Shown piece after piece: positions 53 to 11,410 of a stretch of DNA of 13,911 bases. The stretch comes from Promethearchaeia archaeon (GTDB lineage: Archaea > Asgardarchaeota > Lokiarchaeia > Sigyniarchaeales > SOKP01). The position numbers were made by a program, and so were the translations under genes. Where the stretch lies: assembly GCA_046483985.1 (NCBI GenBank), contig JAWOCD010000047.1, forward strand, positions 1-13,911. Reading direction: 5' to 3'. The notes under the pieces are model-generated. The model was given only the letters and a program-made list of their open reading frames with translations, was not told the origin of the DNA and ran no database searches. Position 1 is the stretch's first letter, and each line of letters opens with the position of its first letter.

Positions 53-382
53 CAGTATTGGGCCCGAATCATTGAACTGGTGGAAGCAATGGAACTGATT
101 AAGCAATACCTCGAAGATCCAGACATTGTCAATCCGGACTGCAAGACCTTAGATGTCGAACCGAAGGAAGGAGTGGGTGTCGGTGTGACCGAAGCTCCGC
201 GCGGTTTATTGTTATATAATATCTGGTCTGACGCCGAAGGAATGTGCAAGAAACTCAATCTGTTAGTTGCCACGAACCATAATATTGCCGGCATTGAGAA
301 ATCCTTAATGCATACGGCAAAACAAGTATTCGAAGATAAGGCATTGGACGGATTAGACTTGCCAGATCCTTGGATTGAATAA
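53..382 (+). CDS. vhuA: C-terminal part of a group 3c [NiFe(Se)] hydrogenase large subunit (VhuA/MvhA), 5'-truncated in this window
   Basis: The frame is open from 44 and reads QYWARIIELVEAMELIKQYLEDPDI...GVGVTEAPRG...NLLVATNHN, all typical MvhA C-terminal motifs. It ends at TAA 380-382 without the DPCxxCxxH motif, which the next small gene supplies. An in-frame TAG lies at 41-43. Confidence 0.85.
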   Translation, partial: QYWARIIELVEAMELIKQYLEDPDIVNPDCKTLDVEPKEGVGVGVTEAPRGLLLYNIWSDAEGMCKKLNLLVATNHNIAGIEKSLMHTAKQVFEDKALDGLDLPDPWIE

Positions 383-429: not shown

Positions 430-582
430 ATGAGTGAGGATGTACCTGAAGGAGTAGTAAACCTCTTAGAAATGATAGTCCGCTGTTATGACTGCTGATT
501 ATCATGTGCCGCCCACATCACAGTTGTTGATGAGGATGGAAAAGAGCTTTACTCTCGTGAGATGAATGTTGGTTTAGGATGA
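430..582 (+). CDS. vhuU: Selenocysteine-containing hydrogenase peptide VhuU (50 aa, Sec at TGA 496-498)
   Basis: Manual translation from ATG 430 gives MSEDVPEGVVNLLEMIVRCYDC-U-LSCAAHITVVDEDGKELYSREMNVGLG*. The TGA falls exactly on the Ni-ligand position of the RxxDPCxxCxxH motif. It sits directly after a large subunit that lacks this motif, with a SECIS-like hairpin downstream. Confidence 0.92.
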
Positions 583-640
583 AATATCCAATATAAATAG
601 TAGATTGGATATGACTGCCCATGCACGGGTTAAAACCAAC
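568..640 (+). promoter_or_regulatory. Eukaryote-type SECIS element for vhuU
   Basis: The core is ATGA 579-582 opposite GA 613-614. It has a perfect 9-bp upper stem (ATATCCAAT 584-592 / ATTGGATAT 604-612), an apical loop with AAA 595-597 and an 8-bp lower stem (GTTGGTTT 568-575 / AAACCAAC 633-640). Confidence 0.8.
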
Positions 641-696: not shown

Positions 697-1215
697 ATGA
701 CAATGGATTTCGAATTTAGAAAGCAAATTATGGATTTTCATATTGGGCCTGATTTAATTAAGTATTGCTATCAATGCCGTAGATGCACGGACAATTGTCC
801 CGTCTCGGATGTCACCGATGAATTTTACAGCAAGCAGTATGACCCAAGAGCAAATATCTTAAATGCTCTGTTGGGATATAAGGATAAGATTTTTTCTGCT
901 GATCCGATTGCCATTTGGGGTTGTACTGTATGTGATACATGCGATGAGGTCTGTCCCCAAGACATCGAATTAACCGAAATTTTTACCTTTCTTAAGAATA
1001 AAAGTATTGAGAAAGGAGATGGGCCAGATTTTCTCTATTCTCAAGCACAGCTTATCTTTGATGAGGCAAAAGCAATTCCCATGCAATCCGCAATTGAGCG
1101 CCGACGCAACCGATTAGATTTACCGGAGATTGAAGCACCAAATACTGATGAGATTCAAGAGTTATTAAAGACTGTAGGAACCGATAAGAAATTAAAAAAC
1201 GAGGTTAACGAATAA
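697..1215 (+). CDS. hdrC: Heterodisulfide reductase subunit C
   Basis: Two 4Fe-4S motifs, CYQCRRCTDNCP and IWGCTVCDTCDEVCPQ; ends 1 bp before hdrB. Confidence 0.9.
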   Translation: MTMDFEFRKQIMDFHIGPDLIKYCYQCRRCTDNCPVSDVTDEFYSKQYDPRANILNALLGYKDKIFSADPIAIWGCTVCDTCDEVCPQDIELTEIFTFLKNKSIEKGDGPDFLYSQAQLIFDEAKAIPMQSAIERRRNRLDLPEIEAPNTDEIQELLKTVGTDKKLKNEVNE

Positions 1216-1216
1216 G

Positions 1217-2092
1217 ATGACAGAGTTTAAAATGTTTGAAGGCTGTACCATCGGGAACCGAATTCCGTTTATAGAAGCTGCTTGCCGTAAGGTGTTTGAT
1301 AAATTAGGTATTGAAACGTCCGAAGCACCCTTTTCATGTTGTCCAGATCCGACAGGAATGAAATCATTTGATAATGATGCTTGGTTAACTATTGGAGCAA
1401 GAAACTTATGTCTTGCCGAGGAAGAAGGTAAAGACATTATTTCCTTGTGCAATGGATGTGCAAACACCCTTTCCGGTGTAGAGCATGAACTAAAGCGCAA
1501 TTCCAATTTAATGGACAAGGTAAATTCTGATTTAGCCAAAATTGGCAAGGAATTTAAGGGGGCTATTTCTGTGGAACATTTTGTTGATGTCTTACTGGAA
1601 AAAATTGATGGAATCAAAAATGCCATAGAAAAACCCTTATCCGAATTAAAGGTTGCATGCCATCCCGGTTGCCACTATATGCGACCAGCAGAATGGATGG
1701 AGGCGGAAGAGGATGTATTTCGTCCAAAAAATCTTCGGAAACTTGTTGCCGCAACTGGGGCAACACCCGTTGATTATGAGGAAGAAGTCTTATGCTGTGG
1801 TTCAGCTGTTTCAAATGCCTACGAAGAACACGGCGAACAAATTCTCAAACAGAAGCTTGATTCCGTTAAAAAAGCGGGAGCAGATTGTATAGTAGTAAAT
1901 TGTCCAGCATGCTTCCAACAGTTTGATACAAAACAACGCGGTCTATCTCGGAAATTTGAAGAAGACTATGATATTCCAGTCCTCTATATCACGGAGCTGA
2001 TAGCTTTGGCAATGGGATTTGAGTCCAAAGAATTGGGAATGAGATATCACAGGACCCGATTACGTAACTTTTTAGCGGACCTAGATTTGTAG
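1217..2092 (+). CDS. hdrB: Heterodisulfide reductase subunit B
   Basis: Two CCG domains: FEGC, SCCP, LCNGC, HPGCH, CCGS, NCPACFQQFD, and IPVLYITELIALAMG near the C-terminus. Confidence 0.93.
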   Translation: MTEFKMFEGCTIGNRIPFIEAACRKVFDKLGIETSEAPFSCCPDPTGMKSFDNDAWLTIGARNLCLAEEEGKDIISLCNGCANTLSGVEHELKRNSNLMDKVNSDLAKIGKEFKGAISVEHFVDVLLEKIDGIKNAIEKPLSELKVACHPGCHYMRPAEWMEAEEDVFRPKNLRKLVAATGATPVDYEEEVLCCGSAVSNAYEEHGEQILKQKLDSVKKAGADCIVVNCPACFQQFDTKQRGLSRKFEEDYDIPVLYITELIALAMGFESKELGMRYHRTRLRNFLADLDL

Positions 2093-2319: not shown

Positions 2320-2589
2320 ATGGATAAAAATGAACTCTATGTACTAAGAAAAAAGAAGATTAAGGATGAGATCCGAGCGGCAAGGAGAATTATAAAAAAG
2401 AGAGTGGAGCCGCTAAAAATAGCAGATAAGTTTATTCACGACTCGTTTGAATTAATGAAAGATAGAATTGTGAAAAATAATCCTGAAATCAAAGATGAAA
2501 GATTAAGGGAAAGAGTGCATGAGATATTAGATATTACTCGAAAAATCAAATCTAAACGGAAAAGAGGTAGAAAAATTGGCAGAAATTGA
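2320..2589 (+). CDS. Small basic protein, probable partner or antitoxin of the downstream nucleotidyltransferase
   Basis: 89 aa, Lys/Arg-rich, preceded by GGAGG and overlapping the next gene by 14 nt. Confidence 0.65.
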   Translation: MDKNELYVLRKKKIKDEIRAARRIIKKRVEPLKIADKFIHDSFELMKDRIVKNNPEIKDERLRERVHEILDITRKIKSKRKRGRKIGRN

Positions 2590-3157
2590 GAAAGTCCTTT
2601 CTCGTTTAGAAAAAATATTTAATACTACAAAATTAAAATATGTTATTGTTGGTGGTATTGCCGTTATCCATTATGGTCATGTGAGAGCCACCCAAGATAT
2701 AAACCTAATCATTGAAGATAATCCTTCAAAAATTTCTCATTTCTTGAATCTATTGGAGGTTTATGATTTTGGTGTTATGAATAAACAAATTAAAAAGGCA
2801 TACCAAGAAAGAACCCACTCTTCTATATTTGATGAAAAGAGCTTTTTAAGATTGGATATTAAAGTAGCCGATAAACAAAGGGAACTAGAGGTTCTTCGTA
2901 ACGCTAAATTTAAAAATATCCTTGATTGTAACTTATCTATTGCTCCTTTGGAATATATTTTACTCGGAAAAATTATTTACCTTGGAAAAATTGATGATAT
3001 CCCGAATTCAGAATTAATGGAATATCAAGATGTGGGAGATTTTTTGACCCTTTTTTATACCCATAAAGACGAGGTAGATTTAAGCTTTCTTAAAAAAAAA
3101 ACTAACCAACTTGGTCTTAAAACGACGCTTTCTCGTCTCCTAAATATTGATTTTTGA
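2576..3157 (+). CDS. Pol-beta superfamily nucleotidyltransferase (AbiEii/DUF6036-like)
   Basis: YVIVGGIAVIHYGHVRATQDINL matches the GG...RxTxDxD signature except that the second Asp is Asn. RLDI, PLEYILLGK and a late D(V)xD are also present. TTG start. Confidence 0.8.
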   Translation: MAEIEKVLSRLEKIFNTTKLKYVIVGGIAVIHYGHVRATQDINLIIEDNPSKISHFLNLLEVYDFGVMNKQIKKAYQERTHSSIFDEKSFLRLDIKVADKQRELEVLRNAKFKNILDCNLSIAPLEYILLGKIIYLGKIDDIPNSELMEYQDVGDFLTLFYTHKDEVDLSFLKKKTNQLGLKTTLSRLLNIDF

Positions 3158-3164
3158 TGGAAAA

Positions 3165-3608
3165 TTAAACCTTTGAGAACTTTTCAGAGATTTCATTTAG
3201 ATTCTTTACATTTTTTTTCAATTCCTCTGGAAGTTTCTTAATTATTTTCTCATCTGCCGTACAGAATATTTCTCCCCAATTTATACTTAAGGCAATATAA
3301 GCAGCATCATATATTGAGATATTATGCCTTATAGCAATTTTGACCATACTTTCCCTGATTTCACCTTGTATTCTTTTTGACGTAAATCTATAATTTTCTA
3401 AACTTACTCCAGCATTATTAATTTCTTCCCGAGTGAATAGTCCGCTATATTTCAAGGCATTTAAAACTTGATAGAAGAGAAAATGTGGAATTATTAATTC
3501 TACTTTCCCGTCTAAAAATTTATCTCTAATCATTAAGGCTATATTCGAATTTTTCTCTTGAATAAACCACTTAACAAGGATATTAGCATCAACGATTAAT
3601 TTATCCAT
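3165..3608 (-). CDS. vapC: PIN-domain VapC-family ribonuclease toxin
   Basis: LIVDANILVKWF, P..LFYQVLNAL, ISIYDAAYIALS and TADEK motifs in a 147-aa protein. Confidence 0.9.
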   Translation of the reverse strand: MDKLIVDANILVKWFIQEKNSNIALMIRDKFLDGKVELIIPHFLFYQVLNALKYSGLFTREEINNAGVSLENYRFTSKRIQGEIRESMVKIAIRHNISIYDAAYIALSINWGEIFCTADEKIIKKLPEELKKNVKNLNEISEKFSKV

Positions 3609-8084: not shown

Positions 8085-10256
8085 ATGACCGAGAATCAGA
8101 ATATCTCATATTTTTTTGATCCCTCATCCATTGCTGTTATTGGGGCGAGCAAGAATCAAGATAAAGTCGGTCATACCGTGCTAAAAAATATTATTGAATC
8201 TGGATTTGAGGGTGAGATTTACCCCATTAATCCAAACGCCGGAAAAATACTTGATTTGCAAGCATATGAAAGCGTCCTTGATGTTGAGGACGAGATTGAA
8301 ATTGCAATTTTTGTGATTCCTTCGAAATATGTAAGCTCCGTTGCAGAAGAATGCGGGAAGAAAGATGTAAAGGGTTTAATTGTAATTACTGCGGGGTTTA
8401 AGGAAATGGGTGGTGAAGGTGTAAAACGAGAAGAAGAATTAATAGAAATTGCAGATAAATACGATATACGGATATTAGGTCCAAATTGTTTAGGATTTAT
8501 CGGTCTTAAGTATAATGGCTCGTTTGCAGTAGAAACTCCGAAAAAAGGAGGTATTGCCATGATCTCTCAGTCGGGTGCAATGCTAACTGGCATGATGGAT
8601 TATTCTATGACCCAAGCGTTCGGATTTTCCTGCAATATAAGTTTAGGTAATAAGGCAGATTTAAGTGCCGTTGACTTTATTGAATATTTAGCAGACGATG
8701 ACGATACAGATGTCATTATTTGCTATTTGGAAAGTATTAAAGACGGAGCTCGATTTTTGGAAGTGGTTCCGGACGCTACTCGTAAAAAACCTGTAGTGAT
8801 CCTAAAATCTGGGGTGAGTGAAGCAGGAGCACGAGCTGCCTCCAGTCACACTGGGGCATTAGCAGGCTCGGATACTGCCTATCAACTCGCATTTGATAAA
8901 TGCGGCGTCATTCGAGCAAGGTCCATTGAAAATTTATTCGATTACGGGGAAATCTTCTTGGAACAACCTCTTCCCAAGCAAAATTCTTTTGCCATTATTA
9001 CAAATGCGGGTGGACCCGGGATCGTGGCAACAGACGCTTTTTCTAGAGAAGGGTTGAAACTTTCAGAATTGAACGAACCAATTCTCCATACTTTACGTGA
9101 CAACCTTCCTGTGGAAGCTGCAGTCTTTAATCCAATTGATATAGTTGGAGATGCTCCTCCGGAACGATACAAATTTACCATCGAAACTGTTTTCGGGCTT
9201 AATCATGGTGCCGAAGAGAAAGAAGGAGAGAATAATTCAATTACAACCAGTGGAGTTCTAATTATAGTTACCCCGCAAGCACAGACCCGACCAACCGAAG
9301 TAGCGAAATTTATCAATGAGGTTAATTCGAAAGGATTGAAAGAAAAGTCCATCGTATGTTCCTTTATTGGAGATAAATCTACTGCAGAAGGACGAAAATA
9401 CCTCAAGGATAATGGTGTACCTTGCTATCATTTTCCCGAACGCGCTGCACATTCTCTTAAAACACTGGTATCGCGAAGAGAATTCCTTCGGACTCCTCCT
9501 TTAGAAGAGCGTGAGATTCCAGAATTTGATGTCAATGAGGAGAAAGTGAAAGAGATCTTCGATGAAGTACAGAAAGACGAACGCAAGATGTTGCTGAGCC
9601 ATGAAGCCAGCGAAGTATTTGAATGTTATGGGATAAAATCTCCCAAATCTCGACTTGCACAGACTCCCCGGCAAGCTGAAGAATTACAAAAAGAGATAGG
9701 GAAATCGGTAATGAAAATTGTAAGCCCTCATATTGTCCATAAGACCGATGTGGGTGGAATTGTGTTGGATGTTACCGATCCGCACGAGGCATTTGAAGCC
9801 TATACTCAAATTGTGGATAATACGAAAAAGTTTGGCCCCCAAAATGCAAAGATCTATGGCGTAGAGGTTCAAGAAATGATTGACTACGACCAGCAAGAAA
9901 AGGTCAATGAATTAATTATAGGTGTTTCCCGAGATCCGCAATTCGGCGCAATGCTCATGGTAGGTTCTGGAGGAATCTACGCTAATTTCCTTAAAGATGT
10001 GTCCTTTGCATTGTCATATAAATTTACCGAACAAGATGCAAAAGAAATGCTGGAGGAGACCAAGATTTTTCGCCTTCTGCAAGGAGTTCGGGGAGACCCT
10101 CCTTCAGATATTGATGCGATTATCGAAGTTCTTTTACGGCTTGCTCAGTTAGTCAGAGATTTTTCAGAGATTGTGGAATTAGATATAAATCCCCTTCTTT
10201 CCTTCACGAAAGGTTATAGTGCAGTGGATATTAAAATTAATTTAAAATATCAATAA
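8085..10256 (+). CDS. acdAB: Acetate--CoA ligase (ADP-forming), fused alpha and beta subunits
   Basis: CoA-binding SIAVIGAS, ILGPNCLG, SQSGA, phospho-His SHTGALAG, TNAGGPG and NPID, then an ATP-grasp region with HKTDVGG and ELDINP. No GNAT domain. Confidence 0.92.
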   Translation: MTENQNISYFFDPSSIAVIGASKNQDKVGHTVLKNIIESGFEGEIYPINPNAGKILDLQAYESVLDVEDEIEIAIFVIPSKYVSSVAEECGKKDVKGLIVITAGFKEMGGEGVKREEELIEIADKYDIRILGPNCLGFIGLKYNGSFAVETPKKGGIAMISQSGAMLTGMMDYSMTQAFGFSCNISLGNKADLSAVDFIEYLADDDDTDVIICYLESIKDGARFLEVVPDATRKKPVVILKSGVSEAGARAASSHTGALAGSDTAYQLAFDKCGVIRARSIENLFDYGEIFLEQPLPKQNSFAIITNAGGPGIVATDAFSREGLKLSELNEPILHTLRDNLPVEAAVFNPIDIVGDAPPERYKFTIETVFGLNHGAEEKEGENNSITTSGVLIIVTPQAQTRPTEVAKFINEVNSKGLKEKSIVCSFIGDKSTAEGRKYLKDNGVPCYHFPERAAHSLKTLVSRREFLRTPPLEEREIPEFDVNEEKVKEIFDEVQKDERKMLLSHEASEVFECYGIKSPKSRLAQTPRQAEELQKEIGKSVMKIVSPHIVHKTDVGGIVLDVTDPHEAFEAYTQIVDNTKKFGPQNAKIYGVEVQEMIDYDQQEKVNELIIGVSRDPQFGAMLMVGSGGIYANFLKDVSFALSYKFTEQDAKEMLEETKIFRLLQGVRGDPPSDIDAIIEVLLRLAQLVRDFSEIVELDINPLLSFTKGYSAVDIKINLKYQ

Positions 10257-10345
10257 ACAACAATTTTTTCCGAATGAAAATAATGTAGAAAATCTTAAAA
10301 TGGATCAAAATAAAATTAAAGTGAGCAAAAAGGATTTGAAGTATT

Positions 10346-11410
10346 ATGGCTAAAAATATATATCTCTGTAGTCTTGAATCTAGAGTGGGTAAAACCTTAT
10401 TATCCATCGGAATAATGCAAAAACTAGAGAAGATGGGCAAAAAGTATTCATATTTTAAACCTATCGGAATTCCGAAGTCTGCATATTCCGCAAAAGCCGA
10501 CCCTGATGTGGGTTTTATTCTAGATACGGTTTATGAAACGGACTATCCTTATCACATTATATCTCCGATATCTATTCCGGATTGTTATTACGTTGACTTA
10601 ATCGATGAAAATAAGAAGCAAGAAGATTTACGGAAAATTAAAGACGCCTACGATCAAATTTCAGAAGGGGTGGATTACGTCATCATTGAAGGATCTCCTA
10701 CCATTAAAAAATTTATCCGGGTGGGCTTGGATGATTTGACCATTGCTGATACCCTCGGTTCGAGAGATATTGTCTATATCGAAAAAGAATCGTCCGATAA
10801 ATGTATTGACAATCTCTTCTTTACTAAAAAGTATCTTGATTTTCGTGAGTTTACCATGAAAGGGGTTCTCTTTAATCAGATTGATTATGATTATTTGGCA
10901 CGGATAGATGAACTTGCTGAGAATCATATCAAACGGTATGGAATCCCGATATTGGGAACAGTAGAAAAAAAATTAGAGTTAGTGGCAGCCCGCGTCTCAG
11001 AGGTAAAGGAAGCAATTGGTGGAGAGTTAATTAATGAAAGTGCCATATCGGGAATGGATACTATGGTCGAGAACTATATTATCGGGGCGATGAATCCTCA
11101 AGCTGCTTTGAAATATTTACGCCAAGTTAAAGGGGCAGCATGCATTACGGGTGGAGATCGTTCTGACCTACTTTTAGCATCATTAGACGAAGATGTCGCG
11201 TGTCTTATTTTAACGGGCTTTATCCAACCGGATGTGAAGGTCATCAGTGCGGCAAATGAAAAAAATGTCCCCATTATCCTCAGTCCTTCCGATACCTATA
11301 CCACACTCCGAAATCTTGAGCGGTTAAAACCGGGACTTCAAAGAGATGAAATAGACGATGTTATAAAACTAATGGAAGACTCGATAGACTGGGAAAGTTT
11401 ATTGGAGTAA
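10346..11410 (+). CDS. BioD-like/DRTGG domain protein (phosphotransacetylase N-terminal region without the catalytic domain)
   Basis: P-loop-like SRVGKT, YFKPIG, IIEG, then IGAM, ITGGDRSD and LILTG; 354 aa. Confidence 0.88.
   Translation: MAKNIYLCSLESRVGKTLLSIGIMQKLEKMGKKYSYFKPIGIPKSAYSAKADPDVGFILDTVYETDYPYHIISPISIPDCYYVDLIDENKKQEDLRKIKDAYDQISEGVDYVIIEGSPTIKKFIRVGLDDLTIADTLGSRDIVYIEKESSDKCIDNLFFTKKYLDFREFTMKGVLFNQIDYDYLARIDELAENHIKRYGIPILGTVEKKLELVAARVSEVKEAIGGELINESAISGMDTMVENYIIGAMNPQAALKYLRQVKGAACITGGDRSDLLLASLDEDVACLILTGFIQPDVKVISAANEKNVPIILSPSDTYTTLRNLERLKPGLQRDEIDDVIKLMEDSIDWESLLE

Follow-up and report, generated by a model that had tools for sequence, protein, structure and literature searches.

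Near the start of a contig from a Promethearchaeia archaeon, a short hydrogenase gene, vhuU, raises the question of how one mRNA can carry two UGA codons with different meanings, the first read as selenocysteine (Sec) and the second, 84 nt further on, serving both as the stop codon and as part of the signal that recodes the first. The window considered here is the whole stretch of DNA that was analysed, 13,911 nt in length. The part of it that frames the question consists of the following genes and sites, vhuU being given as read from its translation:

59..382, plus strand: 3' part of vhuA, encoding the large subunit of a [NiFe(Se)] hydrogenase; the contig start cuts the gene, and its TAA stop is at 380-382.
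430..582, plus strand: vhuU coding sequence, 50 codons plus stop, with ATG at 430 and the stop TGA at 580-582.
496..498, plus strand: the in-frame TGA that is the Sec codon (U23), within YDCULSCAAH.
697-1215, plus strand: hdrC-like gene; Pfam Fer4 dicluster and CCG domains lie among the hdrC/hdrB pair.
1217-2092, plus strand: hdrB-like gene, the other member of the pair that carries these domains.

Judged from its sequence, the vhuU product is the C-terminal part of the hydrogenase large subunit, encoded as a separate protein. A sequence search of the PDB aligned it to residues 422-453 of MvhA (5odc_F), with U23 falling on the first Cys of DPCxxCxxH, which in MvhA is the C-terminal nickel-binding motif. 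The large subunits of [NiFe] hydrogenases have a C-terminal propeptide that is cut off at maturation. The same search found a solved VhuU chain (9sfi_M) of 27 amino acids that corresponds to residues 5-30 only of the VhuU encoded here, and for this reason the last 20 or so residues are read as probably being the propeptide lost at maturation. As for vhuA, phmmer aligned the last 100 residues of its product with the large subunits of F420-non-reducing/Mvh hydrogenases, at about residues 337-417. Pfam returned nothing on either the 50-residue VhuU or the 100-residue VhuA fragment.

The hdrC gene begins 57 nt beyond the element that follows vhuU, and vhuU and hdrC/hdrB probably share one operon. 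The order vhuU-SECIS-hdrC-hdrB is kept in about 50 relatives, all Loki-type Asgard MAGs (Promethearchaeota/Promethearchaeia), in a scan based on HdrB, and of 400 genomes from this phylum covered by a protein search, 298 encode VhuU, nearly always with one in-frame TGA.

Several observations concern the surroundings of these genes. The vhuA of the window is 97% identical to the vhuA of a paralogous locus on another contig (C2), but positions 1-58 have no match there and the vhuA frame contains an in-frame TAG at 41-43; the likely explanation is not a truncated gene but a contig end that is chimeric or of low quality, at the boundary of a repeat. Further downstream, at 2320-3608, an ORF of 89 amino acids that has no Pfam match overlaps an ORF for a DUF6036 nucleotidyltransferase-like protein (2576-3157, plus strand), which is adjoined by a convergent PIN-domain ORF (3165-3608, minus strand), making a toxin-antitoxin-like cluster possible. 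The region 8085-11410 holds a gene for an ADP-forming acetyl-CoA synthetase-like protein of 723 amino acids with CoA-binding, CoA-ligase and ATP-grasp domains, followed by a gene for a DRTGG/AAA_26 protein, an ordinary metabolic context.

The element itself occupies positions 568-640 and straddles the end of the vhuU reading frame. Its parts, all on the plus strand, are as follows:

568..575, plus strand: 5' arm of helix I, the lower stem on the C side of the k-turn, inside the codons Val-Gly-Leu, GTT GGT TT(A).
576..577, plus strand: A576 and G577, at k-turn positions -2b and -1b, with U616 and C615 as proposed partners.
578..582, plus strand: k-turn loop G578-A579-U580, then G581 and A582, the 5' half of the tandem G.A pairs.
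579-582, plus strand: AUGA core, which includes the vhuU stop UGA 580-582.
583, plus strand: A583, an extra unpaired base between AUGA and helix II.
584-592/604-612, plus strand: helix II, a perfect 9-bp stem.
593-603, plus strand: apical loop of 11 nt, AUAAAUAGUAG, A-rich and ending in A602 G603.
613-614, plus strand: G613 and A614, the 3' half of the tandem G.A pairs, with C615 and U616 next.
617-620/627-630, plus strand: helix III, a side hairpin with loop 621-626, inserted in the non-bulged strand.
633..640, plus strand: 3' arm of helix I, forming 8 bp with 568-575.

The sequence-only reading that had drawn attention to this locus placed the vhuU stop, ATGA 579-582, GA 613-614 and the 5' arm of the lower stem, within the coding sequence, exactly where they are found, rightly named a perfect 9-bp stem with an A-rich loop between the two core halves, and its estimate of about 80 nt between the Sec codon and the core agrees with the 84 nt measured from the Sec codon to the stop. 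Its picture of two helices is sound as far as it goes, since both helices are real, but it omits A583, the G577-C615 pair and the side hairpin 617-630. The 3' side of what would be called an internal loop is 18 nt long and has this small conserved hairpin inside it. The sequence fits a k-turn in which G577-C615 is followed by the loop G578-A579-U580 and by the pairs G581.A614 and A582.G613; A583, which keeps the two GA dinucleotides from exact juxtaposition, would need to bulge.

The minimum free energy (MFE) of the single sequence is just two standard deviations better than that of shuffles (z-score -2.0), so that the case for the fold rests on comparison. In a MAFFT alignment of 52 distinct sequences, 88.8% of the cells are paired as against at most 48% when the partners are slid, none of 500 shuffles reaches this value, and compensatory double changes are seen at 19 of the 21 pairs. 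A covariance-model alignment of 97 matches (90 of them distinct) gives 93.5% paired cells; both counts are given because the covariance-model alignment leans towards the structure and MAFFT aligns a few sequences wrongly at the 3' arm of helix I, and taken together the two place 88.8-93.5% of cells in pairs versus at most 50% with slid partners. RNAalifold, run on the unfitted MAFFT alignment, independently recovered all three helices. In the genome of 4.06 Mb, the covariance model finds the site in the window with E=5e-20; it replaced a strict regular-expression scan (ATGA, a perfect stem and GA or AA) whose 174 matches were mostly spurious and which missed several true elements. The fold of the element is thus far beyond chance.

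Each helix contributes to this result. Helix I is 94% paired with compensatory changes at seven of its eight pairs, and helix II, likewise with 94% of its cells paired, has such changes at all nine. Helix III is 91% paired, its two inner C-G pairs being nearly invariant and its outer pairs covarying; relatives from different Asgard families keep it, and the SECIS behind the hdrA-vhuD pair of this genome has it too. Two third codon positions, 570 in the Val codon and 573 in the Gly codon, change in concert with their non-coding partners 638 and 635 (U-A/A-U and C-G/U-A), direct evidence that RNA structure constrains the last codons of vhuU as well. Among the 90 distinct sequences, the pair 577-615 is GC in 87, CG in two and GU in one, and is never unpaired, and A576-U616 is paired in 72%.

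The nucleotides around the core show a similar pattern. GGAUGA is nearly invariant among the relatives, and GAC or AAC stands 3' of helix II in all loci, GA being found there in 49 of 90 relatives and AA in 41. The commonest form has no spacer and AA (41/90). The window belongs to a minority, 15 of 90, with one more base after AUGA, a base always seen together with GA and never with AA; the association of A583 with GA in 15 out of 15 cases may reflect shared ancestry alone. The commonest loop ending is AG (55/90).

In the paralogous vhuU copy on contig C2, helix II is kept by means of three compensatory pairs. This second vhu/hdr locus (L001, G000:C2:52800-55835, minus strand) has the order vhuA-hdrC-hdrB-vhuU-SECIS, unlike the vhuA-vhuU-SECIS-hdrC-hdrB of the window and of some 50 relatives, and its vhuU shows both the overlap of stop and core and the extra A as in the window. 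Elsewhere, a single genome (G123:C82) has two vhuU-type SECIS matches 290 nt apart (L045:1621-1708 and L045:1910-1999), which suggests tandem vhuU copies.

For Sec decoding, the genome has tRNA-Sec, a SepSecS that scores above its curated cut-off, an EFSec-like GTPase whose contig (C17) also carries SepSecS, and a Sec-containing SelD, with a TGA in its reading frame. In addition to the site in the window, the covariance model finds the second vhuU copy on C2 and seven further elements, one of them behind the hdrA-vhuD pair, and the same type of element stands behind other UGA-containing ORFs of this genome. A Cys paralog of vhuU (L062) has TGC in place of the Sec codon and ends in TAA; the model finds no SECIS there at E<=10, and by eye the sequence after the stop does not resemble one. 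The conserved fold tracks Sec-containing genes, and the second UGA of vhuU sits inside its core.

Some of these elements lie outside the five classical families. Hairpins of the lokiSECIS type are found directly behind ORFs with in-frame UGA on four contigs of G000, at C37 (~48133, minus), C97 (~43833, plus), C95 (~49135, plus) and C107 (~2040, plus), corresponding to loci L003, L006, L005 and L007. Two of the four ORFs encode proteins of about 320-335 amino acids with a hydrophobic stretch near the C-terminus, one encodes 172 amino acids with Cys-Sec-Sec and one 132 amino acids with TTUTMSFC; the coding sequence of the C37 ORF extends into the SECIS, with a TAA stop in the loop. Five more covariance-model matches with E values from 5e-8 to 6e-6, at G000:C24:25165-25249 (plus), C24:25773-25861 (plus), C85:93557-93643 (plus), C32:152473-152556 (minus) and C8:27181-27271 (plus), are probably additional SECIS elements.

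Overall, we consider, with a probability of roughly 0.92, that 568-640 is the vhuU lokiSECIS, or Asgard type I eSECIS-like element, a published feature with a k-turn-based fold whose helix I is extended by G577-C615, and that it would recode UGA 496-498 and be melted at UGA 580-582. It has every feature by which a lokiSECIS is defined in sequence (AUGA, a 9-bp stem, an 11-nt loop with an A-rich start and an AG end, GA on the 3' side, and a Sec gene together with the Sec machinery), and the published PatScan pattern, which tolerates one indel, accommodates A583 before the stem. The description of the element as a eukaryote-type SECIS holds for its AUGA/GA core, its 9-bp stem and its A-rich loop of 11 nt; Rfam reports no SECIS family on 380-760 at E<=10 and none on the whole window at the gathering score, and the element is therefore better called eukaryote-like than a eukaryotic SECIS.

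The way in which the two UGA codons would be told apart can be outlined as follows. With the ribosome at UGA 496-498, the whole element would still be at least 70 nt ahead; it would stay folded and would recruit the archaeal Sec-specific elongation factor with Sec-tRNA(Sec), either directly or via a k-turn-binding protein, and Sec would go in at the Ni-binding position of VhuU. UGA 580-582 would provide U(L3), G(1b) and A(2b) of the k-turn. By the time this codon reaches the A site, passage through the mRNA channel would already have unwound both helix I and the 5' arm of helix II, and the lack of a SECIS at that moment would lead to termination by release factor at UGA 580-582, an expectation based on the geometry of the ribosome and on the smallest distance between UGA and SECIS known in eukaryotes. 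That unfolding by the ribosome enforces termination is plausible, and it has been argued before by Mariotti et al. (2016, Mol Biol Evol 33:2441; PMC4989117) as a minimal-distance constraint that bars the recoding of a UGA so near the SECIS. According to the same paper, no SECIS-binding protein is known in Asgard archaea and no SBP2 homologue has been reported in Lokiarchaeota. In a reporter in M. maripaludis, one lokiarchaeal SECIS was non-functional (PMC11881835).

The claim that one mRNA carries two UGAs of different meaning is borne out across the relatives, in nearly all of which the Sec codon is conserved; of 87 distinct loci from several Asgard families, 82 have the UGA of the core as the first in-frame stop beyond that codon. 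The sequence-only reading had proposed aligning orthologous loci for covariation and for conserved overlap, and both were found, the former as the 19 of 21 compensated pairs and the latter as these 82 loci. Among them the spacing from Sec codon to stop is invariably 84 nt, and the core is AUGA in 78, UUGA in three (L076, L078 and L088) and CUGA in one (L046), with the UGA stop retained in these variants; such natural variants indicate that the 5' A of AUGA is not strictly required. The remaining five loci stop at TAA or TAG 5-45 nt upstream of the core and retain the SECIS: in two of them a 2-nt insertion creates a TAG 5 nt upstream, one has a premature TAA, and two closed genomes of a sister family (G138 and G143) have TAA 23-27 nt upstream. 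Because these loci keep the element with an upstream stop, the overlap is not needed for function; it is strongly conserved and not obligatory.

A conserved read-through product ending at TAG 598-600 was also considered and rejected, as the in-frame tails past the stop UGA range from 2 to 62 amino acids and hold no conserved product. Nothing points to selection for a protein extended beyond UGA 580-582.

The overlap might in addition be an adaptive regulator, whereby terminating ribosomes melt the SECIS and thus throttle Sec insertion by trailing ribosomes or couple vhuU output to the rate of translation. In favour of such a role, 82 of 87 loci, drawn from several Asgard families, preserve the overlap together with the distance of 84 nt from the Sec codon, and melting would be unavoidable from ribosome geometry. 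However, conserved protein length explains the spacing equally well, any SECIS near a stop codon would melt in the same way without the need for a special device, the variants with an upstream TAA or TAG retain their SECIS, and in other selenoprotein genes of this genome the stop codon falls within the loop or precedes the core by 3-21 nt. We therefore regard a regulatory role as improbable. The natural TAA and TAG variants, together with the other genes that stop before or inside their SECIS, suggest that the overlap represents compaction and dual constraint rather than a regulatory device, and it is best seen as dual coding, in which the codons for a propeptide, itself probably cleaved off at maturation, also carry an RNA fold.

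A more distant alternative is that the k-turn RNA has nothing to do with Sec decoding and is instead a C/D-box-like sRNA, or an L7Ae-binding element that regulates or stabilises the vhu-hdr mRNA. Rfam C/D snoRNA families do match 568-641, but with E values of 1.3-2.9 and scores of 16-17 bits, far under the gathering scores of 44-60, and these weak matches are explained by the resemblance of AGGAUGA to a C box. There is no D box (CUGA) beside the terminal stem, none before 633-640, and there are no C' or D' boxes; the combination of a C box (RUGAUGA), a D box and a gathering-level score was not found, and a box C/D sRNA was rejected. Moreover, the element tracks UGA-containing genes, is missing by the model from behind the Cys paralog, and has the A-rich loop ending in AG that is the signature of lokiSECIS, which together leave an origin of this kind very improbable. 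The weakest proposal, that of a chance hairpin or an intrinsic transcription terminator, could appeal to a stem-loop right after a stop codon in AT-rich DNA and to the modest MFE z-score, but its probability is negligible in view of the strong covariation in three helices, which already refutes a chance hairpin, and of a downstream sequence that has no T-run in the window and leads within 57 nt to hdrC in conserved synteny.

The preferred reading of 568-640 as the vhuU lokiSECIS may be taken one step further. At odds we would place slightly short of even, the Asgard SECIS is a three-way k-junction and not a two-helix hairpin, combining a canonical k-turn, in which the stop-codon bases would occupy L3, 1b and 2b, with the conserved GC-rich side hairpin 617-630. 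This hairpin might be a second site of protein contact or a vestige of the GC-clamped stem of methanogen SECIS. The k-junction topology has been described for the TPP riboswitch (Wang, Daldrop, Huang and Lilley, 2014, NAR 42:5322; PMC4005666), and the position of helix III in the window, 91% paired and flanked by A614-C615-U616 on one side and by the 3' arm of helix I on the other, corresponds to it; the likeness is one of topology as predicted from sequence, and the function differs.

Among known systems, the closest is the lokiSECIS of Lokiarchaeota VhuU.1, which belongs to the same gene and has the same shape as the element in the window. As described by Mariotti et al. (PMC4989117), it consists of AUGA, a 9-bp stem, an A-rich 11-nt loop ending in G, usually AG, and GA ("AA in VhuU"), and the AUGA motif of VhuU.1 doubles as the stop codon. 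In the published VhuU elements the stem comes directly after AUGA and is followed by AA, whereas the window has GA and A583, and the published drawing is of the hairpin only, without the lower stem, the closing G-C pair or the side hairpin. For Asgard type I eSECIS-like elements, a core GA_[G/A]A, an upper stem of 7-15 bp and a loop of 8-20 nt have been reported, with UGA stops in Lokiarchaeia often overlapping the AUGA motif and a lower stem described for frhA and vhuU, in frhA with the pairs [U/C]GG_C[C/U][A/G] (Huang, Xiao, Zhang et al., 2024, ISME J 18:wrae111; PMC11227280). These frhA pairs correspond to U570-G571-G572 and C636-C637-A638 of the window. In that model, the region from the core to the lower stem is an internal loop, whereas the window has a conserved hairpin and a conserved G-C pair there; both G577-C615, as the closing pair of the k-turn, and the side hairpin 617-630 are absent from the drawings in the two papers. 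The overlap, which the sequence-only reading had left open as perhaps undescribed, was already in print, in the Discussion of PMC4989117 and the Methods of PMC11227280. The layout was thus published in 2016 and again in 2024, and the window is another instance of it, not a new device.

More distant systems share part of the architecture. Eukaryotic SECIS elements (Rfam RF00031 and related; the k-turn bound by SBP2) have in common with the window the AUGA...GA core of tandem sheared G.A pairs and the unpaired adenines in the loop, and they likewise lie in the 3' region and act at a distance on an upstream UGA. Unlike them, the window has a shorter helix II (9 bp), an overlap with the coding sequence and stop, and a third helix. 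The SECIS of Methanococcales and Methanopyrus, with its kink-turn-like GAA_A motif, serves the same gene family (vhuU/frhA) from the 3' region, has a short GC-rich stem and depends for its function on an internal loop of kink-turn-like form (PMC11881835); the AUGA hairpin and A-rich loop of the window element are absent from it. The vhuU element bears on the origin of eukaryotic SECIS from archaeal ancestors, and the comparative support that the window adds for a larger three-helix fold could guide structural and binding work on the Asgard SECIS-binding factor.
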